A stretch of 64,000 nucleotides of DNA from an uncultured Gammaproteobacteria bacterium (GCA_913009875.1 CAJVYS010000001.1:20578-84577), one strand, 5' to 3'; shown: positions 30,251 through 51,256, numbered from the stretch's first letter. The notes: a model not told the origin generated them from the sequence alone. A program made the numbers and translations.

Positions 30251-30300
30251 AAAAAAGGGGCTGTACCCCGCCGGAAAATGCCCGGATGAGGTACAGCCCC
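30251..30300 (-). terminator. Rho-independent terminator after idrA-like gene
   Basis: 11-bp stem GGGGCTGTACC/GGTACAGCCCC followed by T6 on minus strand. Confidence 0.7.
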
Positions 30301-30322: not shown

Positions 30323-33034
30323 TTAAGCAGTGAGGTTACGCGGCACGAAGCTCAGACTGTTGAAGGTACTCTTGTACTTGGATTCACCCAGTTTTTTCAC
30401 CTTGGCAATACCAAGCTTGTAGTTGTAGTTGCCGGTAATGATGTCCACCACCGCGCCCTGCAGCGAGTTGGTGGGTTGCCACATGTTAAGGAAGTTGGTG
30501 AACAGTACGCCCTTCTTGATCGCGGGTGTCACAAGCGCCACCGCCGTTACCGCGCCCTTGCCGAGTTCGATGTGCCCCTCTTTCATCAGGGTATCGAACT
30601 GCAGGTGGTTCTTGTAGACGCCGAGGATGGTGTCCTTGAAGGTCGGCACACGTTCGTTGTACATCATCACCAAGTCGCCCGACTCGATACCGCGCGCCGC
30701 GGCATCGTCCGGGTGGATCTCCATGAACTGGGTATCCGCCGGCCAGCGCTGGGCGATATAGGCGCGGCGTTCCGTGTCATCGAAACCCGATTGCCAGATC
30801 TCATTGATGCGGCCATTGGTGTGCCATAGCTCACCATCCTTTGGCTGCAGCCAGTACCAGTAATCGGAGATTAATGACCAGGGATGCTTCTGGAGATTGA
30901 CCTTGCCGGTCTGGCTGTTGAAGTGGGTGTACTTCTTGCTATGGAAATTGGCGCCTCTTGGCCCGTCCACGCCCCACTTTTTCTCCATGTCGGCCTTGGT
31001 CAAGGTGGTGTCATGCAGGCGTTTGGTGCCATGCAGTTCGCCGGTTTCGTAGTTATAGAAGGTGGGGCCCTGAATGCCATCGGTGCCCAGGGAACGCAAC
31101 TTTTCGTGCAGGGTGGTACCCTCGCGATGCGCCGCGACCTTGATCATGTGATAGGCCTTGCGGCTCTTGCGTGAGAAGCGTGACATCTCTTCCGCCACGT
31201 CGCTGGAGTTCTTCCAGTCATAGCCGTCGTAGCCCATGCGCTTGGCCATCTGGGCGATGATCCACCAATCGGGCTTGGCGTCGCCCGGGGCGTCATAGAA
31301 CTTCGAGTACAGGCGCATGCGGCGCTCACCATTGCCGCGCATGAAGTCTTCCTCGCCCCAGGTGGCGGCGGGGAATACGATATCGGCAAAGCGGCTGCCG
31401 ATGGGGTCACGCAGATAGATTTCGTGATTCCACACCACCATGCCACCGGAGTCGGCGCGCTTCTTCAGCGTGTCGATGATCTCCTGCTTGTCGTGCGAGC
31501 GCACCTGGTGAGGGTTGTGGGTCACCATCTGCTCGAAGGCCTGTTGCAGCCCCACGGTGCCGGCCATGGCCTGCACCCAGGTGGTGCCGATAACGTGCGC
31601 CAGACGGGTATGCCCGGATTTCAGCCAGCGGTCGGTGTCCAGTGGGCGCCGGCGTCTGCCCGGTACCTTCTCCGGTGATTTGTTGCGTGGATAGCTGCCG
31701 CCATTCTGACCACCGCGCTGGTGACCACCGAAGCGTCCCACCACCTGACCCGGCCGGCCGCCTGCGCCGCAGGTCGTCGCCAGGGAGGCGACGGCGTTGG
31801 TGTTGGATGTGCCGGCAGACCAATAGGCGCCCTTCTCAATGCCAAAGGAGGCCTTGATCCGCGAACCATCGGCCTTGGGCTTGGCCAGCCACTCGGCCGC
31901 CAGACGGATCTTGTCGGCATCGACGCCGGTGATGCGGGCGGCATTCTCCAGTTTGTACTCGTCCTGTGCCAGCAGCCACTTCTTGTAGCCCTCAAAGCCC
32001 CCGGTCTGAAACTTGCCCCAGGTGGTGCGCCACTGCCAGGGGGTGTTACGGGTGCCCTGGCCGAAACCGGAATTGGTTTCCCACTTGTTGTTGACCCACT
32101 TTTTGATCCATTCCTGATCCTGCCAACCGTTCTCGACGATGATGCGCGTGATCGCGCCCAGCAGCGGTGTATCGGTGCCCGGATAGAGGTCGAGGTGCAG
32201 GCCAACGCCCATTTTCTTGGCATAGGTCAGGCCGGCTGTCTCGCGCGGATTGATGAAGATAACCTTCATGCCACGATCGATGCCCGGCTTGATCCATTGG
32301 GTATAGATGATGGTCTTGGTTTCGTAGGGGTCGGTGCCACTGATCAACAGGGTGTCCGCCGCACCCCAGTCTTCATACGACGGGGCAAAATTGTCGAAAC
32401 CGGCATCACGATAACCCGGAGTGGAGGTCGCCTTGGAGGGCGTGTCGTGCCAGGTCCAGGCCGCGGTATTGACATCGCGGAAGGAGAAACGGGTGATGGC
32501 GTACATGTTTTCCAGAAACTGGTAACCAAAAGTCTTCACAGAATAGGCATTGGCACCATGGGCCTTGATGACATGCTTGCCCACCTCGGCGGCGATATCC
32601 AGGGCGAAATCCCAAGTCACTGGTTGCAGCATGCCATTGATGCGTACCAGGGGGTGCTTGAGCCTGTCCCGTGTCGGCTTGTCGGGATTGTAGACTTTCT
32701 GCGCGATACACCCGCCGCGGATACTGGAGTCACCCTGCAGGTTGACGTACTGGGTGCTCTTGTCGGGCGTGATCACCACATTATGGGGACGCCCTTTGTG
32801 CATCACCACATTGTGCTGAGTCGGCGCCACCCAGTCTTCCATGGCGGCCGAGGGAAAGTCGATGCCGAAGGCATTTTCCGCGGCCTTGGGGCCACCGCTG
32901 GGGGTACCTACCGGCCAGCGATAGACCTTGTAGCCGCAGGCCACGATGCAATAATCGCAGGCGGTGGTCAGCACATCACAATTCTTCGGCGGCAGCGGTG
33001 CATTGTCTTCAGGGATATAATACTCGGTAGTCAT
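30323..33034 (-). CDS. idrA: AioA-like molybdopterin catalytic subunit, probable dissimilatory iodate reductase large subunit
   Basis: CDYCIVACGY (CX2CX3C, [3Fe-4S] type) and SSIRGG, bis-MGD family motifs (GRINEIWQS, EIHPDDA), no own signal peptide, Rieske plus two CCP genes upstream. Confidence 0.82.
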   Translation of the reverse strand: MTTEYYIPEDNAPLPPKNCDVLTTACDYCIVACGYKVYRWPVGTPSGGPKAAENAFGIDFPSAAMEDWVAPTQHNVVMHKGRPHNVVITPDKSTQYVNLQGDSSIRGGCIAQKVYNPDKPTRDRLKHPLVRINGMLQPVTWDFALDIAAEVGKHVIKAHGANAYSVKTFGYQFLENMYAITRFSFRDVNTAAWTWHDTPSKATSTPGYRDAGFDNFAPSYEDWGAADTLLISGTDPYETKTIIYTQWIKPGIDRGMKVIFINPRETAGLTYAKKMGVGLHLDLYPGTDTPLLGAITRIIVENGWQDQEWIKKWVNNKWETNSGFGQGTRNTPWQWRTTWGKFQTGGFEGYKKWLLAQDEYKLENAARITGVDADKIRLAAEWLAKPKADGSRIKASFGIEKGAYWSAGTSNTNAVASLATTCGAGGRPGQVVGRFGGHQRGGQNGGSYPRNKSPEKVPGRRRRPLDTDRWLKSGHTRLAHVIGTTWVQAMAGTVGLQQAFEQMVTHNPHQVRSHDKQEIIDTLKKRADSGGMVVWNHEIYLRDPIGSRFADIVFPAATWGEEDFMRGNGERRMRLYSKFYDAPGDAKPDWWIIAQMAKRMGYDGYDWKNSSDVAEEMSRFSRKSRKAYHMIKVAAHREGTTLHEKLRSLGTDGIQGPTFYNYETGELHGTKRLHDTTLTKADMEKKWGVDGPRGANFHSKKYTHFNSQTGKVNLQKHPWSLISDYWYWLQPKDGELWHTNGRINEIWQSGFDDTERRAYIAQRWPADTQFMEIHPDDAAARGIESGDLVMMYNERVPTFKDTILGVYKNHLQFDTLMKEGHIELGKGAVTAVALVTPAIKKGVLFTNFLNMWQPTNSLQGAVVDIITGNYNYKLGIAKVKKLGESKYKSTFNSLSFVPRNLTA

Positions 33035-33136: not shown

Positions 33137-33736
33137 TTACGATTCCAGCAGATTTTTGTGACGGCCAAAGATCAGCCCCATCATGCCTACGGCGTAGATA
33201 TTGTCGCCATCCAGTTCCAGTAGTACCTGGGGCAGGCTTTCGTAAGCCTGGCCCGAGACCACGATGCCATGTCGTCTCAGGTCATAGGTCGACAGATGGA
33301 GCGGACACTGGCCCAGGATGCGGTGCGGGCCTTCGGCCACATAGCTGCCCTGCAGCGGGCCGCCCTGGTGAGAGCAGATATAGTTGAAGGCAACCACATC
33401 CCGCTTCGGGCCGATGCCGCCACCGGCCTGTGCGCCCGCCATCTTGACGACCATGGCGGAAGAATTGGCCAGCTCATCCGGATAATTGAAATCCACCGGC
33501 ACGTTGTCTTTCAGCTCGCTGAGCTTGGCAATAAGCTTGCGGGGGTAACTCACCACCCGCGCCTGGGCCGCCTGTGCGCTGCCCGGAAATAGCGAGATGG
33601 TAATGGTGCTCGCCGCGACTGCCGTGCTGCCACTGTAAAGAAGGAACTGGCGGCGGGTGAGCATAACCTTGTTATGCACCGCGGCTGAACGTTCCTGCTT
33701 CTGCTTGTCTCTCGGTGTGCTTGTATCAGTACTCAT
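33137..33736 (-). CDS. idrB: AioB-like Rieske subunit with Tat signal
   Basis: TRRQFL Tat motif; CSHQG and CPLH Rieske boxes. Confidence 0.85.
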   Translation of the reverse strand: MSTDTSTPRDKQKQERSAAVHNKVMLTRRQFLLYSGSTAVAASTITISLFPGSAQAAQARVVSYPRKLIAKLSELKDNVPVDFNYPDELANSSAMVVKMAGAQAGGGIGPKRDVVAFNYICSHQGGPLQGSYVAEGPHRILGQCPLHLSTYDLRRHGIVVSGQAYESLPQVLLELDGDNIYAVGMMGLIFGRHKNLLES

Positions 33737-33765: not shown

Positions 33766-35031
33766 TTATTTCGCAGCCTGCGCCGCCTCGAGTTCAGCCA
33801 ATGTGAACAGCGGCTTGTAGCCCGGCAGTCTGGGTTTGGCCATCATGATTTTTTCACCCGTGAAGGCTTCCAGGAAGGCCAGAAGATCCTCTTTTTCTTC
33901 ATCGCTCAAATTGAGCTTGGTGATCAACGGGGTCTTGGTCTTGGGGTAGCTGGTGGTGTTGCCTTCCTCATCGAAACCGCCGCGATCATAGAAGTCGATG
34001 ACTTCCTCGAGGGTATAGAACTGGCCCTGTCGCATGTAGGGTTCGGTGTAGCCGATATAACGCAAACTGGGAACCCGGAACTTGCCTTTGTCCCACTTGT
34101 TCTTGTTACGGAAGTACAGGCCGACATCGTCCTTGACCGTGCGATACAGTTCCTCGGTGGCACCCTTGGCATAGTATTCGAAGCGGAAGGTGATCTGTGC
34201 CAGTCCGTCTTCCAACCACCGCCCTGCGCGGGGGACACCGATATTGTAGTAATTTTCATTGGTAGCAAGGGCGCCATTATGACAAAGGATGCAGCGTGCC
34301 TTTCCTTCAAACAACGCCTTGCCACTCACCTGCTGCTCTGTCAGCGCGGAGCTGTCACCCAGAAGATATTTATCCAGTGGTGTATCACGCTGCACCAGGG
34401 TTCGCTCAAAGGCGGCGAGGGCCTTCCAGGCGTTGTTGATGGTGGGCCAGGGTTCACCGAAGGCCTCATTGAAGCGCTTGACGTACTCCGGGATCAGGCG
34501 CAGCCGTGCCTCCATAAGGTCATTCTCGCCGTTACCGGCGACACCGCCCTTGGCGGCGCTGGGTGCTTGCGCCTCCAGGGAGGGAACCGAACCTGCCCAG
34601 AACAACTTGCTGTAATAGGCGGTGTTGATAATGCTCTGGTTGCTGCGCCAGTGCACGGTGCCGGGATAGCCGCGGGAGATGTCTTCCGCCCAGGACCAGC
34701 CCTGCTCCGGGTCATGACAGGTGGCGCAGCTCACCGAGGCATCACCACCCAGGCGGGGATCAAAAAACAGCAGCTTGCCCAGTTCAATCTTGGCCTTCGA
34801 CATGGGGTTGTCAGGCGGAATGGGGGGTTCACCCAAGGGGGCCAGGGGCGGGATCGCCGCTTCCGGGGCCTTGGCAAACGTGCCGGCCATGGCGGGGGTT
34901 GGCCCCACTTGAGACATCCCGCTTGCTGAAGCCGATGGCTTGTCGCCCATGGCCGCCGCAACCGATACCGACAGAGCCGCTGCAACTGTCGTCGCCATTA
35001 TCAGAATAGACGTTTTCTTTAACGAACTCAT
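33766..35031 (-). CDS. idrP1: Di-heme cytochrome c peroxidase/MauG family protein (IdrP-type)
   Basis: Signal peptide, LGKLLFFDPRL, CATCH, CILCH, FRVPSLR; P1/P2 numbering assigned by position only. Confidence 0.75.
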   Translation of the reverse strand: MSSLKKTSILIMATTVAAALSVSVAAAMGDKPSASASGMSQVGPTPAMAGTFAKAPEAAIPPLAPLGEPPIPPDNPMSKAKIELGKLLFFDPRLGGDASVSCATCHDPEQGWSWAEDISRGYPGTVHWRSNQSIINTAYYSKLFWAGSVPSLEAQAPSAAKGGVAGNGENDLMEARLRLIPEYVKRFNEAFGEPWPTINNAWKALAAFERTLVQRDTPLDKYLLGDSSALTEQQVSGKALFEGKARCILCHNGALATNENYYNIGVPRAGRWLEDGLAQITFRFEYYAKGATEELYRTVKDDVGLYFRNKNKWDKGKFRVPSLRYIGYTEPYMRQGQFYTLEEVIDFYDRGGFDEEGNTTSYPKTKTPLITKLNLSDEEKEDLLAFLEAFTGEKIMMAKPRLPGYKPLFTLAELEAAQAAK

Positions 35032-35047: not shown

Positions 35048-36178
35048 TTAGTTGGGAACATCCAGCCAATTGGCGATTACTTCGTATTCTTTCGGATACG
35101 CTTCGGTCCACACGTGCCGACTGCTGGTCAGCGGTTTGCCGGATAGCGCTAGCAGAAAGGCCACCAGGTCTTTTTGCTCCTGCTTGCTCAGGTCCAGGGG
35201 TTTCATCCTGATGTCCTTGTTGCGGTCGTTATCACCACCACGGTTATAAAAGGCCACGACTTCCGGCAGTGTCTTGATCATGCCGTTGTGCATGTAGGGC
35301 GCGGTGTATTTCAGCTCCCGCAGACTGGGCGTAATGAACTTGCCTATGTCCGACCCATCCGCCTTGTGCTTCTGGATGTGGGCACCGGGGTCACGCTTGA
35401 GGTTCATGTAATTCACGATACCCATGAAATCGGCATAGCCAATGAAGGCCTGATGGCGCGCGGGATCGAGAAACACGTCAAAGTTCTCCTTTACGCCGGT
35501 GTTATATGGCTGGCCGTCGGTGAACATGGGGCCGTTGTGACAGGCGATGCAGCCCGCCTTGCCCTTGAACAGTTCCAGGCCGTGTTTTGCACTGGCCGAC
35601 ATCTGGCCGTCATCAAAAGGCGCCCCTTCCGAGTTCAGGGTCTTGAGGTATTCAGGGATGGCCTTGCGGGCGCCGCCATTGGACGGCTCACCCAGCCCCG
35701 CATCCTTGAACATCTTCACATACAGAGAGTCCTGCTTAAGACGCTCCTGCATGATGCGCATGTCCATGTTCATGATGTAAGATTCGGTAATCATGCCGCG
35801 GGTCACATCATTGAGGTTGGTGCCGATACGCCCGTCATGCATCCACACCGTTTTATGTGCGGCGTTGATCACGCTGGGGGCATTGCGGAAATGCTTGTTA
35901 CCGGGATAACCCTCGGACAGGGCGTCCGGATTGGCAAAGCCATATTCCGGCTTGTGACAGGTTCCGCAGGAGATGGCGGCATCTCCCGACAGACGCTTGT
36001 CAAAGAACAGACGCTTGCCCAGCTCTGCCCTGGCCTTGTTGACTTTGAGGGTCGCTAGCGGGCCAATATCATCGCCTGCTATCGCGACTGGATTCGCCAA
36101 TATCAAACCCATACCCAGGGCTGTTACGAGGAAACCCCTTTTATTCATAAATGGTCTTGTGGTCATTATGCCGGCCAT
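35048..36178 (-). CDS. idrP2: Di-heme cytochrome c peroxidase/MauG family protein (IdrP-type)
   Basis: Signal peptide, LGKRLFFDKRL, CGTCH, CIACH, F.TPSLR..TAPYMHNG; numbering by position only. Confidence 0.75.
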   Translation of the reverse strand: MAGIMTTRPFMNKRGFLVTALGMGLILANPVAIAGDDIGPLATLKVNKARAELGKRLFFDKRLSGDAAISCGTCHKPEYGFANPDALSEGYPGNKHFRNAPSVINAAHKTVWMHDGRIGTNLNDVTRGMITESYIMNMDMRIMQERLKQDSLYVKMFKDAGLGEPSNGGARKAIPEYLKTLNSEGAPFDDGQMSASAKHGLELFKGKAGCIACHNGPMFTDGQPYNTGVKENFDVFLDPARHQAFIGYADFMGIVNYMNLKRDPGAHIQKHKADGSDIGKFITPSLRELKYTAPYMHNGMIKTLPEVVAFYNRGGDNDRNKDIRMKPLDLSKQEQKDLVAFLLALSGKPLTSSRHVWTEAYPKEYEVIANWLDVPN

Positions 36179-36273
36179 TACTATTCCTCCTCAATTGATT
36201 GCGGGCCTCGCCCATGCCCTCAGGGCGAGGACGCATAGTAAATCGATTAAAATCCCTATCTGAACAGGGGGAT

Positions 36274-36290
36274 TGCACAATGCAGGCCAA
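36274..36290 (-). promoter_or_regulatory. Putative sigma54 (-24/-12) promoter for idr operon
   Basis: Minus strand TTGGCCTGCATTGTGCA = GG-N10-GC about 95 bp upstream of first ATG. Confidence 0.55.
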
Positions 36291-36586
36291 ACTGGCCATA
36301 TTACATATTTTCATTTTAAAACATTGGCTTACAGTACATATGTCGAATGTTTCACGGAACAATTTATGAACGCTTTGTTCTATGGAGTCAACCGCAGAGA
36401 CGACTTTGTTCACCCCTCCACGAAATAGCAGGGATATGGGCTGGGATGTCTGTGCAACACGGATCTCACCAGAACGCATGGCAGTCAGCTCACCCGTGTA
36501 GTGTCCTGTTACTTGCTTGTGTTTTGTCATAGCTCCCCTACCCGGATGTCACCTTGGCCTATGCCCTGGATCAGGCTGTGGCCCTA

Positions 36587-38995
36587 TCAGACAACAGCCT
36601 TTCTTTGCCTGCGAACCAACAGCAGACCCATCAGGAATACACCACCGGCAATACCCAGTGGCAAACCATAAACCCTCACCGGATCGACTTCGGCGGGCAG
36701 TACCAGCCAGTACCAAGTGGTCAAGGTATGCTTCGACCCGGCCTCACCATTGCTGCCATCCCAGTCGGCGAAGGACACCGGAATAAAGTCACCCTCATTA
36801 AAGCTCACATCGCCACTGTCACCCCCGTTGCGAGGACGTTTCATCAGCACGCTCCACTGACCATTGTCCCAGCGGCTCTGTACCGAAAGACTGTCATCAC
36901 CCTCTCGAGGCACTATTTTCTGGTTAGGCCCGGAGGCATCCAGCAAGGCACCCCGGGATGCCACAGCGGGTTCCACGCTGCCGGCATTCCAATACCACAT
37001 GGTGGTGGGATGGGCGCCATCGCCATGGCGGAACAGGGGCTTGACCACCACGGGCTTGGTCTTGAATGAATCCTGTTTGGGGAACTGGATCGCAAGGGCA
37101 TCGGAATACAGGGTCAGCTTACTGTCCTGTATCTGTGTCGACACGGCTTCCCCCGGACGGCTGTCGGTACGATCATCCACTTTCATTAAGAAGGCGATCT
37201 CATCCGCGTTGTACAATACCTGCACCGTAATCGAGTCATTCAGTGGCGTAAACAGCCGGTCTTCCTTAATGATGTTGGGCACCAGAGGCAAGGTCACTGC
37301 AGGTGCCGTGTCCCACACCTCATCGGTCAAACTATCCGGCAAGGCACCCTCGATCTTTGCGGCACGCACTACCGGCTCATCACTGGGGGCAGCGGATTTG
37401 TTGCGCAGGCTGTAGACGTAATTGGCAATGTGCCAGCGATCTTCCAGGGAAACGGGATCCTTGTTGCCCTCCTCCGTCGCCCGGTGTGCCGGCATGGGTG
37501 TGCCCGGCACACCGATGGACAGACGTGTATAGATGTTTTTAATGGTCTGTTCACGGACCTTCTCATCCTCGCCAGACACATTGGTGACACGCCAGGTCCA
37601 GGGTTTGGTGAGGTTGCGCGGCCAGAGCCGGTTACCCCAGTCATCCTTCAGTTTTTTACCGGAGGTAATATTGCCGCGACCGGTAATGCCGTGACACTTG
37701 CCGCAAACCTTTTCAAAAACGGGTTTACCCTTGGCCACGGACTCTTCACTGAAAGGAATCTGCGATGCAACGGGTTCCGTGTTGGTAATCTTTTGGTAAT
37801 CCGTTTTCAGATAGCGACCGTCATCATCGAAGAACTCATCATCGGCGTCTTCCGGCGCCCAGGCCGCGGTGGTGTCAAAACCCTTGATCACGGGAATCAG
37901 GCTACGAATCTGCTTGTCGCTCAACAACGTGCTCCACGCCGGCATCGCCGTCCCGTTCAGGCCATGTTTAATGGTATTGAACAAATCATCATCACTTGGC
38001 AGCTCGGTGCCCGGTGAGGTCTTGTATTTGAACAGCGAGAGGGTAAAGTCACGCGGCTTGGGATACATGAGATCGGTGGCAACACCATCTCCCGCCCCCT
38101 GCTCGCCATGGCACACCTGGCAGCGTTGCACATAAACGTCGACACCCATTTGTTGCTTATGGCGCGCACTGACCTTGGACGCCATGCCACTCACCACCTT
38201 GGAGATTTCCGCATCCCACATGCGTGGCACCTGGCCGACATAGTCATAAAGAAAGGTAATCACTTCCCAGGTCTCATTCTCGTTCAGCATCTCGTGCCAC
38301 ACGGGCATGGCGGAATTCCACGGTGTACCCTCTTTGGGCAGGCCCGGGCCACCGGTCGAAATACGCCAGAACAGATAGGCCTCCTGCAACTGGGCAATGG
38401 TACCGACATCCTGGAAGTTGGCCGGCTGGGGACTGAAGCCCAGGGCATAATGACCCTTACCGTCCAACAGATCGCCATGACAGAAGAAACAGTTTTTGTA
38501 ATAGACATCACGCCCCGCCTCGACGATCCCTTCATAGGCCTCCCAGCCTTTGTCCTCATCTTCGGCCATGGTTTTCAAAACCTGTTCGCGCAGCGGATTT
38601 TCCAACTTGGACAAATTGTGGCTTTTGCCGAAGACTCGTAATGAGCCCGGCGGCGCGGGATGTACTTGGCGCAGTTCCACTGGCGCATCCATGGAGGGCT
38701 TGACAAAGCCATAGGTGGTATAACCAACGAGGGCCGGGATGGCGAGCAGGAAACCCCAGCGCACAATCACCAGTCTTGGCTCTCTGAGCACCGCCAGGAT
38801 CGGTGAATTGAATTCTTTCCAGCGCGCCTCATCAAAGGAAAAATACAACAATACACTGACAATGGTAATGATCATGTACTGCACCATCAGCGAACTGGGC
38901 AGCAAGGGTGGAAAGGCATTATCAAAAATCAGGTAGGCGATAATGACGACCAACACAGCCTGCCAAAAAGCGGGAATTTTAATGCCTTTCATCAT
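36587..38995 (-). CDS. Membrane-anchored tri-heme cytochrome c with C-terminal ethylbenzene-dehydrogenase-gamma (EB_dh, heme b)-like domain
   Basis: 3 N-terminal TM helices; CFFCH, CQVCH, CGKCH; W..AP..TLPL...D.LAIQFP...WYWNA...W.V.MKRP...F..WDG; C-terminal TM. Confidence 0.85.
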   Translation of the reverse strand: MMKGIKIPAFWQAVLVVIIAYLIFDNAFPPLLPSSLMVQYMIITIVSVLLYFSFDEARWKEFNSPILAVLREPRLVIVRWGFLLAIPALVGYTTYGFVKPSMDAPVELRQVHPAPPGSLRVFGKSHNLSKLENPLREQVLKTMAEDEDKGWEAYEGIVEAGRDVYYKNCFFCHGDLLDGKGHYALGFSPQPANFQDVGTIAQLQEAYLFWRISTGGPGLPKEGTPWNSAMPVWHEMLNENETWEVITFLYDYVGQVPRMWDAEISKVVSGMASKVSARHKQQMGVDVYVQRCQVCHGEQGAGDGVATDLMYPKPRDFTLSLFKYKTSPGTELPSDDDLFNTIKHGLNGTAMPAWSTLLSDKQIRSLIPVIKGFDTTAAWAPEDADDEFFDDDGRYLKTDYQKITNTEPVASQIPFSEESVAKGKPVFEKVCGKCHGITGRGNITSGKKLKDDWGNRLWPRNLTKPWTWRVTNVSGEDEKVREQTIKNIYTRLSIGVPGTPMPAHRATEEGNKDPVSLEDRWHIANYVYSLRNKSAAPSDEPVVRAAKIEGALPDSLTDEVWDTAPAVTLPLVPNIIKEDRLFTPLNDSITVQVLYNADEIAFLMKVDDRTDSRPGEAVSTQIQDSKLTLYSDALAIQFPKQDSFKTKPVVVKPLFRHGDGAHPTTMWYWNAGSVEPAVASRGALLDASGPNQKIVPREGDDSLSVQSRWDNGQWSVLMKRPRNGGDSGDVSFNEGDFIPVSFADWDGSNGEAGSKHTLTTWYWLVLPAEVDPVRVYGLPLGIAGGVFLMGLLLVRRQRKAVV

Positions 38996-39074
38996 TCACC
39001 CCGTACCAATAATATCGATTTATAGATTTTTTCTTCACCAGCCCTGCGGACACCTGCATTTATCGAGACACTCA

Positions 39075-40223
39075 TTACTTACGTTCCATCAGGAAAGTCA
39101 CCAGCGCATCCAGCTGTGCATCGCTCATTTGTTCGGAAAAGTTAGGCGGCATCACCCCCGAGGGAAAGCCCTTGGCAATAACGGCATTGGGGTCGACAAT
39201 ACTCTGACGAACTTGCCCGGCATCCAGTCGTGCCCCCACATCATCCAGGCCGGGGCCAATCTTTCCGCCACTTCCCCAAATGATGTGGCAGGCCTGGCAG
39301 CCAAACTGGCCGATCACTGCCTTGGCACTACTGCTATCGCCGCCATCATCTCCGTCTGTCGCATGAGTGTCCGGCAGGGATGCCGCGATAGATTTCTTAC
39401 TGTCCACCAAATAGTCCACCAATATATCCAGCTCCTTCACCATCATCTGCTCGGCGAAGTCCTGCGGCATCACACCGGGCGGGAAGCCCTCGGCAATCAC
39501 CACATCAGGGGTGATAATGCCCTGACGGATTTCTTCGCGGGTGAAGCGAGCAACCATCTGATCCAGGTCGGGGCCGAGATCCCCTCCGCTGCCCAGTATT
39601 TTGTGGCAAGCCTGGCAACCATACTTGGCGACTACCTCTTCAATTGTGCCCGCGGGTCCAGCTGCTTCCGGGCTGGCGGTTTCCATCGCCGGCGCCTCTG
39701 TGGGAAGCGTCACCGTCACATCGTGTCCATCCTTGGCCTGAAGGAAGGCAATGATGGCATTGATCTCTATTTCCGAAAGCTCAATCGGCGGTTTATCGAC
39801 CGCCGGCATGGGTGAAATGGTGTCGTTACTTCCCTTCTTACCGAAGCCCTTCACCACGTAGATACCGGGATCGACCATGGATTCATGCAGGTAGGATTCG
39901 GCATCAGTGGCTGAGCCCTTGTAGCGCTCATCCTGCATATGCTGGTTGGCCACCTCCACCATATTGATCGCCAATATATCCGGGGCGCGGCCGAGATCGT
40001 TATGGCACAGGGCACAGGTTCCCTTTCCTGAAAAGAGGGTCTCACCCAGGGCGGCATAAGATTCCACGGTCAACGCCCCCAGATCCACTTTCTGCTCGAC
40101 AGGGGCCTCACCTTCCACCTGTGGCAACAGGTTGGCGACCAGGGTGAACAACAGTGCCAAGGCCAGACTGAAGCCCATACTTTTTGCCAGCACACCGCGA
40201 GGGGCTTTTGTCTTGTTGCTCAT
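39075..40223 (-). CDS. Membrane-anchored tri-heme cytochrome c
   Basis: N-terminal TM; CALCH, CQACH, CQACH; the last two domains are near-duplicates. Confidence 0.9.
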   Translation of the reverse strand: MSNKTKAPRGVLAKSMGFSLALALLFTLVANLLPQVEGEAPVEQKVDLGALTVESYAALGETLFSGKGTCALCHNDLGRAPDILAINMVEVANQHMQDERYKGSATDAESYLHESMVDPGIYVVKGFGKKGSNDTISPMPAVDKPPIELSEIEINAIIAFLQAKDGHDVTVTLPTEAPAMETASPEAAGPAGTIEEVVAKYGCQACHKILGSGGDLGPDLDQMVARFTREEIRQGIITPDVVIAEGFPPGVMPQDFAEQMMVKELDILVDYLVDSKKSIAASLPDTHATDGDDGGDSSSAKAVIGQFGCQACHIIWGSGGKIGPGLDDVGARLDAGQVRQSIVDPNAVIAKGFPSGVMPPNFSEQMSDAQLDALVTFLMERK

Positions 40224-42085
40224 GCGGCCTCTCCTGCCTTTTTAGTCACCGACAATGGTGGCGCCTGTTTGGTATTACTGAGATTGGCGATCCAGAAGAT
40301 AAACAGGACAAAGAGTACAAACATGACAGTAACAATCGTCATCATATTTCCCGCATAACCAATAGTGGGGATAAAATTGTCCGGCGAGTTGTCCTTCATT
40401 ACGGTATACACATGCCAGTGGGTACGCACCGAAGAGCGCACATACCCCATCAGCGCCATCAACCAGGTAAAGGCGATGGGCAGTGCAAACAGGGCGTACT
40501 GGGAACGGTTGCTGACCTGGCCCCAGAAGGATGGCAGGGTCTTGGCCTTGCGATACATGAAGGCATCGATCACGACTCCACTGATAATGACCACCAGGGT
40601 GGACACCACCTGCGTAACACTCGCCCCGACCTTGTACACGGTGTTGGTGAAGTAACCGTAATAGACACCGGCAAAAATGATATTGACGATAGCCACGACA
40701 TAGATTGCCACCATCAGGGCATTGCCGGCCTTCTCCCACGAGACCGTGGCGACCTTGTCCGAGCGCCGGTAAATCTGGAAGGACAGAAAGGTGAAAATGA
40801 GCATCAGATTCACGGCGATGTTCTTGGCCGGCATGATCCCCAGTGGTCCCAGCAAGTGATGATGGCTACCACCCAAGGCGGCGATTTCACCCGAGGTAAG
40901 GATCAGGGTATGCGGCGTCACCCAGATCAGGAAACAGATGACCAGGACGACGGCGATATATTTGATCATCCCCTGGTAACGCTTTGATCCTTCGGTGCGT
41001 GACATGCCAGACCACAAATAGTAGTTACCCGCCATGAGGATGGTGCCGATCAATACTGCCTGAACGATAAACAACCAGGCCAGAATGCCACCCATGGCGG
41101 TAATGCCCATCTGCTGCGAATAGGCGTAGATCTCGGCCATCAGCCAATAACCGGCGAAGGGCAAGGGCAGGAAGGCGAGGATGGCGATGAAGTTGGAGGT
41201 GTAGCCCATCCAGTCATAATGCGCGCGGTCCTCGGCGGTTCGGGCGGCCAGACACTTGTAGGCCGCATAGGCTCCCACCACCGCGCCGCCGAAGGCAATG
41301 TTGGCGATAAACCGATGCAGATTGATGGGGTTCCACAACGGCCCCTTCATGACCTCCCAGATATTGCCGATGACCGCGCCGACCTCATTGACCCCCGAGG
41401 GCGCCATCATGAAGGTGGCCCAGGAGTTGGCCATCACCATCAACGTAGCGCCGACACCATTCAATAACAGACCCAGGGAAATATGTACCCACTTGGCGTT
41501 GCCATAGCGCATGGCATCCCAGCCGTAGTAATAGATGTAAAGCAATATGCTTTCCATGAAGAACAGCATGGCGTAAACCAGCATCTGTGCGCCGAAGGCC
41601 TGCATCAGATAGGCCATTAAATCGGGATAAAGCAGGAATAACGCTAACGCCAGGGTGCCACCGAACAGGGCCGTGATGGAATAGGCGGTAATGCTGATCT
41701 TCATGAACTCGTGGGCCATGTCGTCATAGCGCGCATCACCGGTGGATCGGCCCAGCAGTTCAATCACCAGCACAAAAAGCGGCACCGCCAGCACCAGGGC
41801 GCCGAAAAATAAATGCATTTGCGCGATGATCCAGACAATGGAGCGGCTACTGACGCCGACATCGGGATAATCCTCACGGCCAGGCCGGGGGGCCGGTCTC
41901 AGCTGAAATTCCTGCGCAGAATCAGCACTCTCTGCCGTGGCCACTTCCTCTGCGGCAACTTCACTCGCCACGGCCTCGGGCAACCAGTGAGTCGGCGCCA
42001 TGTCTCCTGACCATAAAAAACCCAGTACGGCGACCACCAACAGAGACAGCAGTATCGGTGACGAGAAATTTCTTGTTTCCTTCAT
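40220..42085 (-). CDS. Cytochrome bd subunit I (CydA)-like orphan membrane protein
   Basis: AQMHLFF (His19-like), ANSWATFM, NLHRFIAN (His186-like), MGYVRSSVRTHW; many TM helices; no cydB nearby. Confidence 0.82.
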   Translation of the reverse strand: MKETRNFSSPILLSLLVVAVLGFLWSGDMAPTHWLPEAVASEVAAEEVATAESADSAQEFQLRPAPRPGREDYPDVGVSSRSIVWIIAQMHLFFGALVLAVPLFVLVIELLGRSTGDARYDDMAHEFMKISITAYSITALFGGTLALALFLLYPDLMAYLMQAFGAQMLVYAMLFFMESILLYIYYYGWDAMRYGNAKWVHISLGLLLNGVGATLMVMANSWATFMMAPSGVNEVGAVIGNIWEVMKGPLWNPINLHRFIANIAFGGAVVGAYAAYKCLAARTAEDRAHYDWMGYTSNFIAILAFLPLPFAGYWLMAEIYAYSQQMGITAMGGILAWLFIVQAVLIGTILMAGNYYLWSGMSRTEGSKRYQGMIKYIAVVLVICFLIWVTPHTLILTSGEIAALGGSHHHLLGPLGIMPAKNIAVNLMLIFTFLSFQIYRRSDKVATVSWEKAGNALMVAIYVVAIVNIIFAGVYYGYFTNTVYKVGASVTQVVSTLVVIISGVVIDAFMYRKAKTLPSFWGQVSNRSQYALFALPIAFTWLMALMGYVRSSVRTHWHVYTVMKDNSPDNFIPTIGYAGNMMTIVTVMFVLFVLFIFWIANLSNTKQAPPLSVTKKAGEAA

Positions 42086-42177: not shown

Positions 42178-42306
42178 TTACTGTGACGGTGTTAAATCAA
42201 GATTCAGAGGCAAGCCCTGCACATTCATGATCAAGTGATCCAATCCATAGAAAAGGATCAGCACCACGGTGAAGGCGATTAACCAGATTTGTAGATTCTT
42301 TCCCAT
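42178..42306 (-). CDS. 42-aa single-TM small protein
   Basis: MGKNLQIWLIAFTVVLILFYGLDHLIMNVQGLPLNLDLTPSQ; purine-rich leader; in operon. Confidence 0.6.
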   Translation of the reverse strand: MGKNLQIWLIAFTVVLILFYGLDHLIMNVQGLPLNLDLTPSQ

Positions 42307-42384
42307 TTGCTTCTCTTGATCTTTACGCGTGAAATATTCCGTCCGCCATAACATGGCGAACACGAATTCTGTTCTCAATCAACG

Positions 42385-42546
42385 TCAACCGTGATGTATT
42401 TCAGCACCGCCGGAATAGATTAGCAGCCACCAGAAAAACACCAGCATCAGAACCAGGATGGTCCAGAACAATTTGGGACCCCAGGTGGTGCCGTCCTGTA
42501 ACTCCGTGGCCTGGGTCTTGTCTTCTTGCTTCCCCGATGCAGTCAT
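42385..42546 (-). CDS. 53-aa single-TM small protein (not in ORF track)
   Basis: MTASGKQEDKTQATELQDGTTWGPKLFWTILVLMLVFFWWLLIYSGGAEIHHG; GGAG RBS. Confidence 0.65.
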   Translation of the reverse strand: MTASGKQEDKTQATELQDGTTWGPKLFWTILVLMLVFFWWLLIYSGGAEIHHG

Positions 42547-42656: not shown

Positions 42657-42674
42657 TAGCAACATCCAGGCCAT
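42657..42674 (-). promoter_or_regulatory. Putative sigma54 promoter for the bd-like operon
   Basis: Minus strand ATGGCCTGGATGTTGCTA = GG-N10-GC with TTGC. Confidence 0.6.
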
Positions 42675-43012: not shown

Positions 43013-43128
43013 ATCCACAAGCTAACGCGATGTGAAACAGCGTCCTGAAACCGGAACACATGCACTTTCTATCTTCATGGGATATCAACGTGACCAGTAT
43101 TCAAAAACCAACGGATTCAAAACGAGAT

Positions 43129-45597
43129 ATGGCTGACAAACAAGACGCAGTGCAAGCCCTCCGCAGGCTGCTCAGCAAGGGCGATGAACTGGATCGTTGT
43201 TGCGCCTGCCGCTCCCTCGGCGTACTGGGGAGCCGTGATGCCGTACAGGCACTGGTCAAACATCTGCGCGATGACGATATCGATGTGTGTATCGATGCCG
43301 CTGAATCCCTGGGACTGCTGGATGATCCGACCGCCGTCGCACCCTTGATCGAATCCTTGCACAATGACTCCGATGGTGAAATCAGGGTCTCCGTCGTCGA
43401 GGCACTGGGACGCCTGGGTGGAGAACAGGCCACGTCAGCGCTGCTGTCACTGCTGACATCCGTGCCGGAAGATACCGACTGGGACGATGATGATGCCTGG
43501 GACAGCAACTGGGACGTCCAGCGCAAGGCCGTGCAGGCATTGGGTTACCTGCATGTCGCCGAGGCCGTTGCCCCCCTCACCACGCTGCTGGACGAAGAAG
43601 ACGCCCTGGTCGACGAAACCGACGTCCTGCTGGCCCTGGCGCGGATTGGTGATGCCGGTGAAGACATCGTCATCCAACGCCTGCAGAACGGCACGACACG
43701 TGAACGCCGGCGTGCGGCCCATGCCTTGGGCCAACCCTGCTCCCCCACCGGCGCCCGTGCCCTGGGTCGCGCCTTGCGAGATCCGGAACCGGAAGTCCGC
43801 GCCGTCGCCGCCGAAGCGCTCGCCAATAATGGCCAGGGCCGCTACCTGGGCGCCCTGCTCCTGCTGTTGCGTGATCCCGCCGACGAAGTGCGCGAAATCG
43901 CCCTGAAGATGGCCAGCAAGCTCAGTTCACAGGTCAATGCCGAACTCGATGTACAACAGCTGTTGCCCCTGTTGGGCGATCCCAGTGCCAGGGTGCGCGC
44001 CGCCGCGCTGCACGCCTTGCAGGGACACTTGCCCGACCCGCTTGATGCCGAAACCCGGGCACGCCTGGTCGGCTTGCTGAGCGATTCCGAGCCCATGGTT
44101 GCCACCGCCGCCCTCCCTCACGCTCCCCGTCTGGAGGATCCGGACGTCGATGCTATCCTGCTCGGTCTGCTGGCCGATGAACAACGGGATCCCGCCGTTC
44201 GACAGCAGGCCGCACTGGCCCTGGGCAATCGCCCACAAACCTCAGAGGAAGTGCTCACGGTCCTGGACAACGCGATCAATGACCATGAACCTGTGGTGCG
44301 CTGGGCGGCATTACAGGCCCTGATGGCCTGTCATAAAAAACAGCCCGATACGACCACTTCCGATGCAGCCCCCGACACAGCACTTGATACAGCTCTCGAT
44401 ACAGTTTTTGATACAGAGAAAGAGAAGCCCGCTGAAGCAGAAGACGAGCCCGCCGCCCCGCTGGCCCGCATTCTCGCCGCATTGCATGGCGAAGCGGGCA
44501 TGGTCACAACAACGCTTGCATCTGCCGAAAGCAGCAGCGGAGACGATCCAATCCCCGAGTCAACGGACGAGACTTCCGTCGACGTTTCTGACGCCCAAGA
44601 AGAAACCGATGCATCAAGCATCAATGAGACCGCACCGGCATCGACCCTCGACGCCATCATGCTGGCCAATACAGAATACGAGCAACTCGACGAAAAGAAA
44701 AAAACCATCACCACGGATGTACTGCCCGAACTGCCAGCCGAGGAAACCGAAGCCTTCCAGGACTTCTATGACATCCTCGCCCGGCAGCGGCATAACAAGA
44801 AAAAGTTCTACCGTGGCAAGAATATCGATATCGAGGCCGATATCCGCCTGCTCAGCGCCCGCGTCCTCGGCGAGTGCAGCCAGCCCGAGGTGGTCGAGGT
44901 ACTGAAAAAGACCATGCTTGAGGATAACCCCGAACTCCAGCAGGAAGCCGTTGACGCCCTCGCACGCCTGGTGCCGGGTACCCCCGGGTTGACAGAAACA
45001 CTGGGACCACTGAACAGCCTTCTGCATATGGGGGCATCCGAACTACGGGTCGCCAGCGCACGCGCACTGGGCGCCCTCGGCAACCTGCCCTGCCTGCCCA
45101 ATCTGCAGGAAAGCCTGCAGGATGAAAATCCTCTGGTACGCAGTCAATCGGTCATGGCCATAGCGCAGATACTGGAACGACACGCCGGCAAGCTGTCATG
45201 GGAACAGCACGCCGACACGCATACCGCCATCCCCGTCGCCAGCGCACGGGCACAAGAAGAGGCCGATACCATCGAACAGACATTGCACGCCCTGTCCGAA
45301 CATCTGGCCGACAGTGATGTGGGCGTCAGCAAGGCCGCCGCTCTGTCGCTGGCAAAACTAAACCCGCTTCTGCCCGGCGGCAAGACCCGTGATGACATCA
45401 TTGAGCGTCTTATTACCGCCGGCTTTGTCGGCGAGGGACGGCAAGCGCGGGAGATGGGCCAGGCCTTACGCGCCCTTGACCCCGGCATGGCCAGCGACAC
45501 ACTGATACACCACCTGGATACCTTGCCATCGAGTATGGAACGACGATTTGTGCTGGAAATGCTGGAAGAAGTCTTCCGCCCATCACAGGCCGCATAG
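43129..45597 (+). CDS. HEAT / PBS-lyase-like repeat protein
   Basis: Many D....VR..A..ALG.L repeats, acidic low-complexity middle; likely start MADKQD. Confidence 0.85.
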   Translation: MADKQDAVQALRRLLSKGDELDRCCACRSLGVLGSRDAVQALVKHLRDDDIDVCIDAAESLGLLDDPTAVAPLIESLHNDSDGEIRVSVVEALGRLGGEQATSALLSLLTSVPEDTDWDDDDAWDSNWDVQRKAVQALGYLHVAEAVAPLTTLLDEEDALVDETDVLLALARIGDAGEDIVIQRLQNGTTRERRRAAHALGQPCSPTGARALGRALRDPEPEVRAVAAEALANNGQGRYLGALLLLLRDPADEVREIALKMASKLSSQVNAELDVQQLLPLLGDPSARVRAAALHALQGHLPDPLDAETRARLVGLLSDSEPMVATAALPHAPRLEDPDVDAILLGLLADEQRDPAVRQQAALALGNRPQTSEEVLTVLDNAINDHEPVVRWAALQALMACHKKQPDTTTSDAAPDTALDTALDTVFDTEKEKPAEAEDEPAAPLARILAALHGEAGMVTTTLASAESSSGDDPIPESTDETSVDVSDAQEETDASSINETAPASTLDAIMLANTEYEQLDEKKKTITTDVLPELPAEETEAFQDFYDILARQRHNKKKFYRGKNIDIEADIRLLSARVLGECSQPEVVEVLKKTMLEDNPELQQEAVDALARLVPGTPGLTETLGPLNSLLHMGASELRVASARALGALGNLPCLPNLQESLQDENPLVRSQSVMAIAQILERHAGKLSWEQHADTHTAIPVASARAQEEADTIEQTLHALSEHLADSDVGVSKAAALSLAKLNPLLPGGKTRDDIIERLITAGFVGEGRQAREMGQALRALDPGMASDTLIHHLDTLPSSMERRFVLEMLEEVFRPSQAA

Positions 45598-45691: not shown

Positions 45692-46426
45692 ATGAATAAG
45701 GCACTCACGGTATTTACCCTATTTGCAGCAGCCAGTCTTCCGTTAACGGCCGCAGCCTACAAGGTCGTGGATGTTGCCAACGGCGGCACCATCACTGGAA
45801 AAGTGAATTTTTCGGGAACCGACCCGGCGCCAAAAATCTACGCCATCACCAAGGACACCGATGCCTGCGGTACCGGTGATCGTGAAATTGATTTTGTCCG
45901 CGTCACCAATGGCGCCCTCAATGACACCGTGGTCTATCTGAAAAAGGTAAAATCCGGCAAGGATTTTTCGGCCGACATCAATAACCTCGAGGTCAACCAG
46001 AAGAAATGCGGCTTCATTCCCTTCCTGTCGGTGATGAAAAACAAAGACAAATTAGCGGTGCACAACTCAGACCCGGTGCTGCACAATATCCATACCTACG
46101 AACTTATCGGTAAGGCGAGAAAGACCGTCTTCAACATCAGTCAGCCACCGGAACTCACCGTCATCAAGAAGACCGTCAAGCTCAAGCGTGGCGCTGCCAT
46201 GAAGCTGGAGTGTGATGCCCACGACTTCATGCACGGTTATGTCTTCGTGGCCAAAAACCCCTACTTTGCCGTCGTTAAAGAGGACGGCAGCTTCGTCATC
46301 GACAATGTCCCCCCCGGCAACTACAAGATTGCCGCCTGGCACGGTCTCCTGGGCGAACAAAAGGGCAAGGTCACGGTGGATGCCGGCGGCAAGACCTCCA
46401 TCGATTTCACATTCAAGGGCAGATAA
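45692..46426 (+). CDS. Secreted cupredoxin-like protein with carboxypeptidase-regulatory-like domains
   Basis: Sec signal; HNIH ... CDAHDFM fits a type-1 Cu His/Cys/His/Met set. Confidence 0.7.
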   Translation: MNKALTVFTLFAAASLPLTAAAYKVVDVANGGTITGKVNFSGTDPAPKIYAITKDTDACGTGDREIDFVRVTNGALNDTVVYLKKVKSGKDFSADINNLEVNQKKCGFIPFLSVMKNKDKLAVHNSDPVLHNIHTYELIGKARKTVFNISQPPELTVIKKTVKLKRGAAMKLECDAHDFMHGYVFVAKNPYFAVVKEDGSFVIDNVPPGNYKIAAWHGLLGEQKGKVTVDAGGKTSIDFTFKGR

Positions 46427-49123: not shown

Positions 49124-49127
49124 CACG

Positions 49128-51149: not shown

Positions 51150-51157
51150 ATATGCCG

Positions 51158-51241
51158 GTAGGTTGGGGTGAGGTACGAACCCCAACAGCGGCAGTTTGCC
51201 AAAACCTCGATTGTTGGGGTTCGTACCTCACCCCAACCTAC
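51158..51241. repeat. REPIN, family C, inside the operon
   Basis: Perfect 30-bp inverted repeat between radical SAM gene and hemY. Confidence 0.9.
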
Positions 51242-51256
51242 AACTAGAAGTAAAAC

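Follow-up and report, generated by a model that had tools for sequence, protein, structure and literature searches.

A predicted OR-N2-type cytochrome bd-like module adjoins an iodate-reductase-type operon in an uncultured gammaproteobacterium

Introduction

What does a relative of the cytochrome bd subunit CydA do beside a putative iodate reductase, with genes for multihaem cytochromes c standing where cydB would be expected? The question is raised by positions 36,587 to 42,085 of a 64,000-nucleotide (nt) stretch of DNA from an uncultured Gammaproteobacteria bacterium (GCA_913009875.1, CAJVYS010000001.1:20578-84577); this whole stretch is referred to below as the window. The original prediction, made by a model from the sequence alone, recognised here a CydA-like protein without CydB, coupled to six c-type haems, and offered two candidates for its function, a cytochrome-c-linked oxidase and a transmembrane wire. 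These correspond to the two published hypotheses for the OR-N2 group of the cytochrome bd superfamily, namely a cytochrome-c-oxidising O2 reductase and a connection of the quinone pool with a high-potential enzyme of the periplasm, and the present computation does not separate them. As judged from the genes, the locus would encode an OR-N2-type 'bd-like' respiratory complex of the CydA-like subunit, two cytochrome proteins and two small one-helix proteins.

Results

Assignment of the CydA-like protein to OR-N2

The gene order on the minus strand is two small open reading frames (ORFs), the gene for the 621-amino-acid (aa) CydA-like membrane subunit, genes for cytochromes of 382 aa and 802 aa, a gap of 408 nt and then the idr-like block. 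The sole Pfam match of the 621-aa protein (40220-42085, minus strand) is to Cyt_bd_oxida_I (PF01654, 67.7 bits, cut-off 26.2), with residues 80-602 aligned on profile positions 2-413 of 418. Among solved structures phmmer gave 9r2g_A as the best match (E 4.1e-10) and also found 5doq_A (E 1.3e-08), while no solved OR-N structure was present among the PDB sequences searched. The AlphaFold2 model has 15 helices and a predicted local distance difference test (pLDDT) score of 66; the top 10 PDB matches returned for it by Foldseek were all CydA chains (E 2e-5 to 1.6e-3, template modelling (TM) scores 0.28-0.34).

Because both the residue signature and the operon content match, the sequence assigns the protein to OR-N2. 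The OR-N2 reference protein, TKS59798.1, has 14 transmembrane helices and carries H269, N434/M430, S563, H99, Y183, E190, H213, W569, Y197 and Y199 (Table S6, Murali et al., bioRxiv 10.1101/2021.01.16.426971). The window protein has H257, N422/M418, S551, H91, Y171, E178, H201, W557, Y185 and Y187, equivalents matched not by direct alignment but by an offset that is constant at -12 (-8 for the His19 equivalent). Each occurs in at least 97% of 80 aligned relatives from genome contigs, the set over which all residue conservation was counted. OR-N2 operons typically contain several cytochromes c and an EbdC homologue (Murali et al. supplement, 10.1101/2021.01.16.426971); the window operon contains multiple cytochromes c, an EbdC/NxrC-like domain and no second CydA. 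The protein had been placed beforehand among the quinol-site-lacking, cytochrome-c-associated OR-N orphans, and the OR-N2 signature, found at every checked position, bears this placement out. The same entity appears in the Nitrospira, Nitrospina and anammox literature as the 'bd-like oxidase + alternative NxrC + two cytochromes c' cluster, and the Ca. Manganitrophus papers name the equivalent cluster TO_1. An OR-C type enzyme was considered and rejected, as there is no CxxCH motif inside the CydA-like protein itself. Taken alone, this protein is an ordinary member of a large, known and uncharacterised family: its relatives at E <1e-5 make up more than 4,700 protein clusters, and at least 592 GTDB species encode one.

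The 80 relatives share 175 alignment positions conserved at 97% or above, and seven histidines are conserved in the family (91, 201, 257, 289, 392, 409 and 558). HMMER alignment to 5doq_A and 9r2g_A places H91, kept in 99% of the relatives, on Geobacillus His21, which is His19 of Escherichia coli, and H257 on His186, in keeping with the original prediction that both residues are retained. In the HMMER alignment to solved bd oxidases E178 falls on Glu107 and Y171 on Glu99. The equivalents of His126 and Met393 are H201 and M418, both kept at 97% or above. The Glu445 position lacks a Glu and is occupied by S551 (alignment of Murali et al.), R550 (low-confidence hhalign) or G547, depending on the alignment. 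Since local hhalign of the family against E. coli CydA (probability 92%) is confident over the N-terminal 200 residues only, this assignment relies on the published alignment, under which the predicted Ser stands, together with the absence of a nearby Glu. The original prediction also had the arginine of the GRQPW region kept; R550 and W557 are invariant, and R554 is either Arg or Lys. The extra histidines singled out earlier proved to be family features (H409 and H558 100%, H392 96%, H556 80%); H201 and H289 are present in 100%. At the place of the Q-loop, after helix 6, further hydrophobic helices are found, in a region where the profile alignment carries no confidence. All quinol-binding residues of bd oxidases are stated to be absent in OR-N2-type proteins (Murali et al., 10.1101/2021.01.16.426971).

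Predicted topology

The 621-aa protein comprises an N-terminal helix and about 13 more membrane helices. When the helix at 308-326 is taken as periplasmic, 14 of the 15 predicted helices would cross the membrane, a topology that fits the positive-inside rule with 17 Lys and Arg residues inside and 7 outside, versus 8 inside and 16 outside otherwise. From the predicted secondary structure, the periplasmic side would then hold H91, H257, M418, H392, H409 and H558, the cytoplasmic side K198, H201, H289 and D291, and E178 would sit in the lower half of helix 3. The counterparts of Met393 and the GRQPW loop would be set in the periplasm, like those of bd oxidase. These modelled side assignments suggest that the haem sites kept on the periplasmic side are those of axial His91 and of His257 with Met418. 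The counterparts of the protonatable residues by which bd oxidase takes up protons from the cytoplasm are likewise retained (Glu178, His201 and Lys198), and His289 and Asp291 would be new invariant members of this set. Relative to bd oxidase, the Q-loop, the Glu445 ligand and CydB are lost, and five helices and the periplasmic His 392/409/558 are gained.

Absence of cydB

A six-frame phmmer search of the 64-kb window with E. coli CydB found nothing (best E about 1), and no CydB match was obtained among 1074 ORFs of 80 related loci (best E 0.9). Nor is there a second CydA-like gene in the window, where the family hidden Markov model matches only the gene at 40220-42085. The place expected for cydB is taken by cytochrome c genes, the first of them translationally coupled to the CydA-like gene. 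As had been predicted, the products are two tri-haem cytochromes, with three CxxCH motifs each.

These searches bear directly on another explanation of the locus, that it encodes a divergent but ordinary quinol-oxidising cytochrome bd with cydB elsewhere in the genome. The match to the Pfam CydA family would suit such an enzyme. The signature, by contrast, is that of OR-N2 and not of qOR, no Q-loop residues and no Glu445 are found, the helices number 14 and not 9, the coupled cytochrome genes sit at the cydB place, and cydB is missing from the window and from the 80 loci. A canonical bd oxidase with a distant cydB was accordingly rejected on signature, helix count and missing cydB; we consider it very improbable and close to refuted. 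The original prediction had named clustering with canonical CydA and a distant cydB as the outcome that would overturn it. What was found instead is a best solved relative at E 4e-10, with low structural similarity of the model to CydA chains (TM 0.28-0.34) and no cydB in the loci searched.

Cytochrome subunits and small proteins

The gene for the 382-aa protein (39075-40223, minus strand) overlaps the stop of the CydA-like gene by 4 nt at its start, an arrangement indicating translational coupling. Its product is a membrane-anchored tri-haem cytochrome c with an N-terminal hydrophobic helix, a Pfam Cytochrom_C match and the motifs CALCH70, CQACH203 and CQACH309. Three haems are atypical for this family, 70 of whose 83 members have two CxxCH motifs. 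Kustd1711 (7zs0_A) is the best solved relative (E 8.4e-16); this di-haem cytochrome is encoded in the nxr cluster of Kuenenia, and measurement put its haems at about +350 mV (PMC11791136).

The 802-aa protein (36587-38995, minus strand) is a fusion of a 3-helix mono-haem cytochrome c, a di-haem cytochrome c, an EB_dh domain and a C-terminal helix; distant relatives carry separate genes instead, 'f6' (about 255 aa) and 'cEB' (about 550 aa). Three of its hydrophobic helices are N-terminal and one is C-terminal, and the CxxCH motifs are CFFCH169, CQVCH292 and CGKCH431. PDB 6H5L is the best solved relative of the di-haem part. The cytochrome domains of the module give sub-threshold matches to the CcoP and CcoO models. 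Residues 559-756 match the EB_dh/DMSO-reductase-type-II gamma (haem b) domain (PF09459, 65.8 bits), the haem-b subunit fold of ethylbenzene dehydrogenase and NxrC. The positions of EbdC Met108 and Lys201 are taken by H657 and K755/H756, respectively, and the ligand positions alternate between His and Met across the family. The domain is thus predicted to add a seventh, b-type, haem to the six c-type sites. The earlier count of six c-type haems agrees with the six CxxCH motifs, but this haem-b domain had been missed; the domain and the small proteins extend the original description.

Two one-helix proteins encoded upstream on the minus strand are candidate small subunits. One is a 53-aa protein (42385-42546) with one hydrophobic helix and no Pfam or NCBIfam match; the other (42178-42378) has 66 aa from a TTG start or 42 aa from an internal ATG. 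By tblastn, matches to each were found at the same position in about 30 loci, with identities of 37-81% and 42-77%, respectively, and the genome of Profundibacter amoris has annotated genes of 41 and 42 aa at this position.

Conserved linkage to the idr-like block

The best 120 protein matches of the CydA-like protein are 73-98% identical to it, and most of the named ones come from sulfur oxidisers of the Gammaproteobacteria, such as Thiodiazotropha, Sedimenticola, Thiolapillus and Parabeggiatoa. A protein 98% identical to that of the window is encoded on a contig of an uncultured Ectothiorhodospiraceae metagenome-assembled genome (L001). When all ORFs of 80 loci and of the window were clustered into families, the genes for the CydA-like protein, the cytochrome and the EB_dh cytochrome were always co-located. 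An idrP1P2BA-like block lies directly downstream of this module in 24 of the 26 loci whose CydA-like protein is at least 62% identical to that of the window and which extend at least 7 kb downstream. The two exceptions, both from Parvularculaceae (L025, L026), are the sole cases among close relatives in which the module lacks idr. In these two loci the module is followed by genes for a 504-aa protein and for a 926-aa protein that has a C-terminal cytochrome c domain and a large N-terminal part.

In a neighbour-joining tree the close group forms one clade with gamma- and alphaproteobacterial branches. Two Nitrospinota loci (L073, L079) occupy a separate branch, in which the module and an idr-like block are joined divergently; this linkage is an independent arrangement. 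The idr-linked sequences consist of one large clade and this separate pair. The whole arrangement is present in the complete genome of the cultured Profundibacter amoris, with genes for a Crp/FNR-type regulator and a ferrochelatase upstream. The original prediction had regarded the position beside idr as a testable context, and this context is stronger than was claimed, as the adjacency is kept across classes and phyla.

In the distant group, the counterpart of the 802-aa protein is split in two genes, modules are often in tandem and there is no idr block. Tandem duplication of the whole module (CydA-like protein, di-haem c, mono-haem c and EB_dh cytochrome) was seen in L050, L054, L063, L068, L070 and L079, recalling the bd-like_3/bd-like_4 duplication reported for Nitrospira. 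Six idr-less loci from Magnetococcales, Mariprofundaceae and others (L056, L057, L062, L072, L074, L080) have cytochrome b/PetD-like genes nearby, and a protein of roughly 596 aa in these loci shows a CuA-like motif (CSHFCGPLHLEM), as judged by eye.

The distribution also bears on the view that there is no direct coupling, the module serving low-oxygen respiration in general and having no more than its island and a regulator in common with idr. As such a view would expect, each of the two is widespread in the absence of the other. The linkage in 24 of 26 close loci, the second and different linkage in Nitrospinota, and the fact that the idr-linked sequences form a clade of their own with a specific gene fusion all argue against it, and we regard it as improbable.

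A search of the literature for links between bd-like proteins and iodate, or between idrA and cydA, ubiquinol oxidase, ethylbenzene dehydrogenase or NxrC, found none, in a search that left subscription journals mostly outside. Relative to the literature searched, three things are new: the idr-linked subclade with its gene fusion, the shared promoters, and the haem and copper accessory genes.

The iodate-reductase-type operon

The block downstream of the module is encoded on the minus strand. It begins with two IdrP-like di-haem cytochrome c peroxidases, a MauG-like one of 376 aa (35048-36178; PF03150, 122 bits), syntenic in 24 of the 26 close loci, and an MbnH-like one of 421 aa (33766-35031; PF03150, 141 bits) with the same synteny. 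An IdrB/AioB-like Rieske small subunit of 199 aa with a twin-arginine translocation (TAT) signal follows (33137-33736; TIGR02694, 113.8 bits, cut-off 95.65; Rieske and TAT_signal matches), and then an IdrA/AioA-like molybdopterin large subunit of 903 aa (30323-33034; Rieske_3, Molybdopterin and Molydop_binding). A terminator-like hairpin with a T-run stands after idrA (30257-30269). Two peroxidase genes separate Idr from Aio clusters, and Vibrio spp. and Sedimenticola thiotaurini have been named as carriers of the iodate island (Reyes-Umana 2021). All four island-defining genes, including both PF03150 peroxidases, are present in the window. Proteins of Vibrio, Photobacterium, Sedimenticola and Thiodiazotropha share 68-73% identity with the large subunit, which scores only 271 bits against solved arsenite oxidases; no solved IdrAB structure was found among the PDB sequences searched. 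Gene content and similarity to the carrier genera therefore suggest an iodate-reductase-type operon.

Clusters of idr without the module were found in Vibrio sp. VB16 (L082), Photobacterium (L086) and Pelagibaculum spongiae (L083). They keep a HEAT gene, a PAS kinase and a sigma54 regulator, followed by the peroxidase-peroxidase-Rieske-molybdopterin series. In two of these three cases a gene for a soluble carrier stands beside idrA, a small cytochrome c in Vibrio and a cupredoxin in Photobacterium. No ORF with a CxxCH motif was found after idrA in 15 module-bearing loci (14 and the window), over 0.7-2.5 kb of downstream flank. Roseovarius azorensis, Notoacmeibacter and Aliiroseovarius were absent from the best 120 matches of a search with the Roseovarius-type protein, and the aerobic iodate reducers that have been tested probably lack the bd-like module.

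The identity of this operon matters for a third reading, in which the system is oxidative: the AioA-like enzyme would oxidise a high-potential donor, such as iodide or another oxyanion precursor, and the OR-N2 enzyme would be the terminal oxidase. Elsewhere the module accompanies oxidising enzymes (NXR, Mn(II) oxidation), and the same pairing with NXR has been proposed in nitrite oxidisers. Arsenite oxidases are the nearest characterised relatives of IdrA, the IO3-/I- couple at 0.72 V lies below O2/H2O at 0.82 V, and the literature searched held no iodate-reduction test of a module-bearing organism. Against an oxidative role stand the 68-73% identity of the large subunit to that of the module-less Vibrio and Photobacterium clusters, the presence of the idrP1P2BA gene set that defines iodate reducers, and the iodate-reducing activity of the related Pseudomonas, Denitromonas, Azoarcus and Roseovarius enzymes. 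The energy yield would be low, marine iodide is sub-micromolar, and the Crp/FNR-type regulator beside the alphaproteobacterial clusters suggests induction at low O2. An oxidative system of this general kind has, in our estimate, only a small chance of being correct. A more specific form, in which the module-linked 'Idr' clade is an iodide-oxidising respiratory system whose AioA-like enzyme and peroxidases make iodate, with OR-N2 as terminal oxidase, is given a slightly smaller one.

Promoters, regulators and accessory genes

Elements of the sigma54 -24/-12 type (TGGC-N8-TGC[AT]; background 0.097 per kb per strand) occur on the minus strand upstream of both operons. One, TGGCCTGGATGTTGCT (42658-42673), precedes the bd-like operon, and the other, TGGCCTGCATTGTGCA (36274-36289), lies 111 nt upstream of the first peroxidase gene. 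Such an element is found upstream of the module in 23 of 65 loci, at a similar position in nearly all gammaproteobacterial loci, and before the first peroxidase gene in 12 of 24 loci, mostly at 94-125 nt, where chance would give about 1.2 loci. The cluster has a regulatory pair on the plus strand (53129-57183), an 864-aa PAS sensor histidine kinase with a sigma54-dependent response regulator of 487 aa; the same pair flanks idr in Vibrio, Pelagibaculum and Photobacterium. Since both operons have sigma54-type elements and the cluster encodes a sigma54 activator, co-regulation of the module and idr operons is likely in the gammaproteobacterial version.

Further genes on the plus strand recur with the module. 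A divergent gene encodes an 845-aa HEAT-repeat protein with PBS-lyase-type repeats (43060-45597), and it accompanies modules without idr too (L050, L054, L063, L068, L070). The gene for a 244-aa protein with a signal-like N-terminus and a beta-sandwich (CarboxypepD_reg-like) domain (45692-46426) adjoins the module in 22 loci, Nitrospinota included. It is followed by genes for a 745-aa protein with Usp domains and four PCP_red (BchB C-terminal-like) domains (46886-49123), found with the module in 29 loci whether idr is present or absent; for a 673-aa radical SAM/SPASM protein like NirJ2/AhbD with three PCP_red domains (49128-51149), found in 25 loci and matching TIGR04055 (310.7 bits) and TIGR04545 (296.7 bits), both below their 500-bit cut-offs; and for a 472-aa flavoprotein like HemY-type protoporphyrinogen/coproporphyrinogen oxidase (51257-52675; TIGR00562, 257.4 bits, above the cut-off of 97.85), found in 18 loci. 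This trio (46886-52675) follows the module with or without idr (L050, L063, L070, L072, L078, L069, L075, L077, L037). Alphaproteobacterial clusters have a ferrochelatase in its stead, and some loci have HemL. The links to the trio, ferrochelatase and HemL suggest a dedicated route of tetrapyrrole supply or modification. In nine close loci (L005, L007, L009, L011, L013, L015, L018, L019, L047) a gene for an SCO1/SenC-like copper chaperone with a CPDICP motif lies between the EB_dh cytochrome and the first peroxidase gene. Together, the recurrent tetrapyrrole-synthesis and copper-delivery links suggest that the complex needs a special cofactor; no mention of these links was found in the literature searched.

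Discussion

Terminal reductase or quinol dehydrogenase

The reading preferred here, though held tentatively, is a terminal reductase that consumes protons and receives its electrons from cytochrome c, with cytochromes that wire IdrAB as well. The cytochrome subunits, with six c haems and one NxrC-like b haem, would form a periplasmic electron hub that swaps electrons with the periplasmic IdrAB-type molybdoenzyme and stands in for the soluble cytochrome c or cupredoxin of the module-less idr clusters. Drawing electrons from the same hub, the CydA-like subunit would act as terminal reductase of O2, or of a small membrane-permeant oxidant arising from iodate reduction (HOI, H2O2). Reduction would take place at the His91 haem with protons from the cytoplasm and would be electrogenic, like that of bd oxidase. 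In gammaproteobacteria the PAS kinase and sigma54 activator would switch both operons on together; in alphaproteobacteria the gene beside the cluster is instead one for a Crp/FNR-type regulator.

A catalytic, proton-consuming haem site is favoured by the His19 ligand, the Glu107 and His126 equivalents, and the SCO1-like and haem-related genes, and a role in electron supply is favoured by the tight coupling to the reductase operon and the missing soluble carrier. The literature treats OR-N enzymes as putative cytochrome-c-oxidising O2 reductases, and in an aerobic Mn oxidiser expression of the TO_1 cluster reaches the 98th percentile. In one model of iodate respiration O2 is formed and then respired, and HIO and H2O2 have been reported as intermediates. 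As a variant less radical than the iodide-oxidising reading, the CydA-like subunit might be an electrogenic reductase of hypoiodous acid or peroxide, perhaps with a copper site of three His (392/409/558) or a modified haem made by the products of the linked NirJ/AhbD-like and HemY-like genes.

Several points weigh against a terminal reductase. The AlphaFold2 model is of moderate quality, and the loops with H392, H409 and H558 fall below pLDDT 50. No activity of an OR-N enzyme has been measured to date. The module is conserved in strictly anaerobic anammox bacteria, which makes O2 unlikely as a universal substrate, and iodate reduction has been demonstrated only in organisms apparently without the module. 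Oxidase and iodate reductase alike consume electrons, and the tight synteny would be simpler to explain if the module supplied them. The 'proton path' comes from homology and topology only, and H201 and H289 could bind a haem on the cytoplasmic side. Finally, the window itself has no SCO1-like gene: the 408-nt gap (36179-36586) holds an unconserved 129-aa ORF and the sigma54-type element.

A close alternative, only somewhat less likely than the preferred reading, is that the module is a dedicated quinol dehydrogenase. The CydA-like subunit would oxidise quinol at a remodelled site, from which electrons would reach IdrAB by way of the b haems of this subunit and then the seven haems in the cytochromes, so that the island would not need the host's bc1 or soluble cytochromes, a logic like that of NapC, TorC, alternative complex III and the quinol dehydrogenase of the perchlorate island. 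The candidate site is an invariant periplasmic helix at 307-333 (PLPFAGYWLMAEIYAYSQQMGITAMGG; E318, Y313, Y320) at the Q-loop place, and no other part of the CydA-like protein is as conserved as the segment that replaces the Q-loop. Near-obligate synteny and sigma54-type promoters shared with the reductase operon agree with electron supply, as does the lack of a soluble carrier gene at the spot used by the module-less clusters. A quinone-pool link has been proposed in the literature for the homologous module beside NXR (Nitrospira, Nitrospina, anammox) and would fit anaerobes, and the Kustd1711 haems at about +350 mV fall between quinol and IO3-/I- (0.72 V at pH 8.1). On the other side, every known quinol-binding residue of bd oxidases is missing, no quinol-site motif was identified by the tools used, and the invariant cytoplasm-side E178, H201 and K198 would be left with no obvious role. 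Many modules also occur alone, often in tandem, with no partner reductase nearby.

Comparison with known systems

The terminal-reductase reading and its alternatives apply to a complex with clear counterparts. With OR-N2 (Murali, Gennis & Hemp 2021; the bd-like_3 + alt_NxrC_2 cluster; TO_1) the window shares 14 helices, the Table S6 residues, the lack of a second CydA or CydB, and a multi-cytochrome c operon with an EbdC/NxrC-like haem-b protein that has a membrane helix; with OR-N2 of Kuenenia it shares a 382-aa cytochrome homologous to Kustd1711 of the nxr cluster. Unlike the OR-N2 of Nitrospira, Nitrospina and Kuenenia, the partner is an AioAB-type (Idr-like) enzyme with two di-haem peroxidases and not NXR, the mono-haem 3-helix cytochrome is fused to the di-haem/EB_dh part (802 aa), the first cytochrome has three haems instead of the usual two, the EB_dh ligand positions are His and not Met/Lys, and the hosts are sulfur-oxidising and heterotrophic Proteobacteria.

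The CydABX oxidases (E. coli 6RKO, Geobacillus 5DOQ) share with the window the CydA fold in the first helices, the equivalents of His19, His186, Met393, Glu107 and His126, and small one-helix proteins. They differ in having CydB and the Q-loop (K252, E257), in Glu445 and Glu99, which are Ser and Tyr in the window protein, and in the absence of the five extra helices and of c-type cytochromes as electron partners. As in the cbb3 oxidase (CcoNOP), membrane-anchored mono- and di-haem cytochromes c would feed a catalytic membrane subunit; this subunit, however, belongs to an unrelated superfamily, and a CuB/haem-copper motif is not demonstrated in the window protein.

The four defining genes of the iodate island idrABP1P2 (Yamazaki 2020; Reyes-Umana 2021) lie downstream of the module, and the HEAT gene and the PAS kinase/sigma54 regulator pair are shared with the idr clusters of Vibrio, Photobacterium and Pelagibaculum. 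Unlike the published island, the window has a 5.5-kb bd-like operon and haem-related genes between the HEAT gene and the first peroxidase gene.

A perchlorate reduction island reportedly described by Melnyk et al. in 2011 is said to comprise pcrABCD, cld, a quinol dehydrogenase, a di-haem cytochrome, PAS/sigma54 regulators and moaA. It would resemble the present cluster as a mobile island for a high-potential oxyanion with its own membrane module, sigma54-type regulation and a molybdenum cofactor gene. Its membrane module is, however, said to be a NapC/NirT-type tetrahaem quinol dehydrogenase and not CydA-like, and Cld there reportedly makes O2 that the cbb3 oxidase of the host consumes.

Other features of the window

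On the plus strand, moaA, for molybdenum cofactor biosynthesis, lies at 57255-58238; Rfam and tRNA scans of the window found nothing, the Moco riboswitch included. The region 58245-63124 encodes a NorR-like sigma54 activator with a GAF domain on the minus strand and, facing it, a series of genes whose products are a two-domain cupredoxin protein of 313 aa, a di-haem cytochrome c of 246 aa and a multicopper protein of 360 aa with a NirK-like domain composition; the 246-aa cytochrome clusters with the cytochrome family of the module. The region 8000-12000 has a GC content of 0.37-0.43, versus about 0.57 elsewhere, encodes a DUF2971 protein and one of 544 aa that combines DUF4041 with T5orf172/MUG113 domains, and looks like a horizontally acquired islet.

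Implications

Published models of iodate respiration route electrons through bc1 and a soluble cytochrome and describe an island of four genes. In many marine carriers, the iodate island would instead span about 28 kb, with its own membrane complex, haem-related genes and regulators. The need for a special cofactor would matter for expressing the complex. Should the improbable iodide-oxidising reading be true, marine iodate formation, for which a biological route has so far been lacking, would gain a named enzyme system. In nitrite oxidisers, anammox bacteria and Mn oxidisers, few respiratory genes are expressed as highly as those of OR-N complexes, and one reason why their activity has gone unmeasured is that the known hosts are slow-growing and genetically intractable. 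The module and an idr-type operon occur together in cultured Proteobacteria, namely Sedimenticola hydrogenitrophicus, Profundibacter amoris and Aestuariirhabdus, and these carriers make the function of OR-N2 an ordinary question of knock-outs and enzyme assays.

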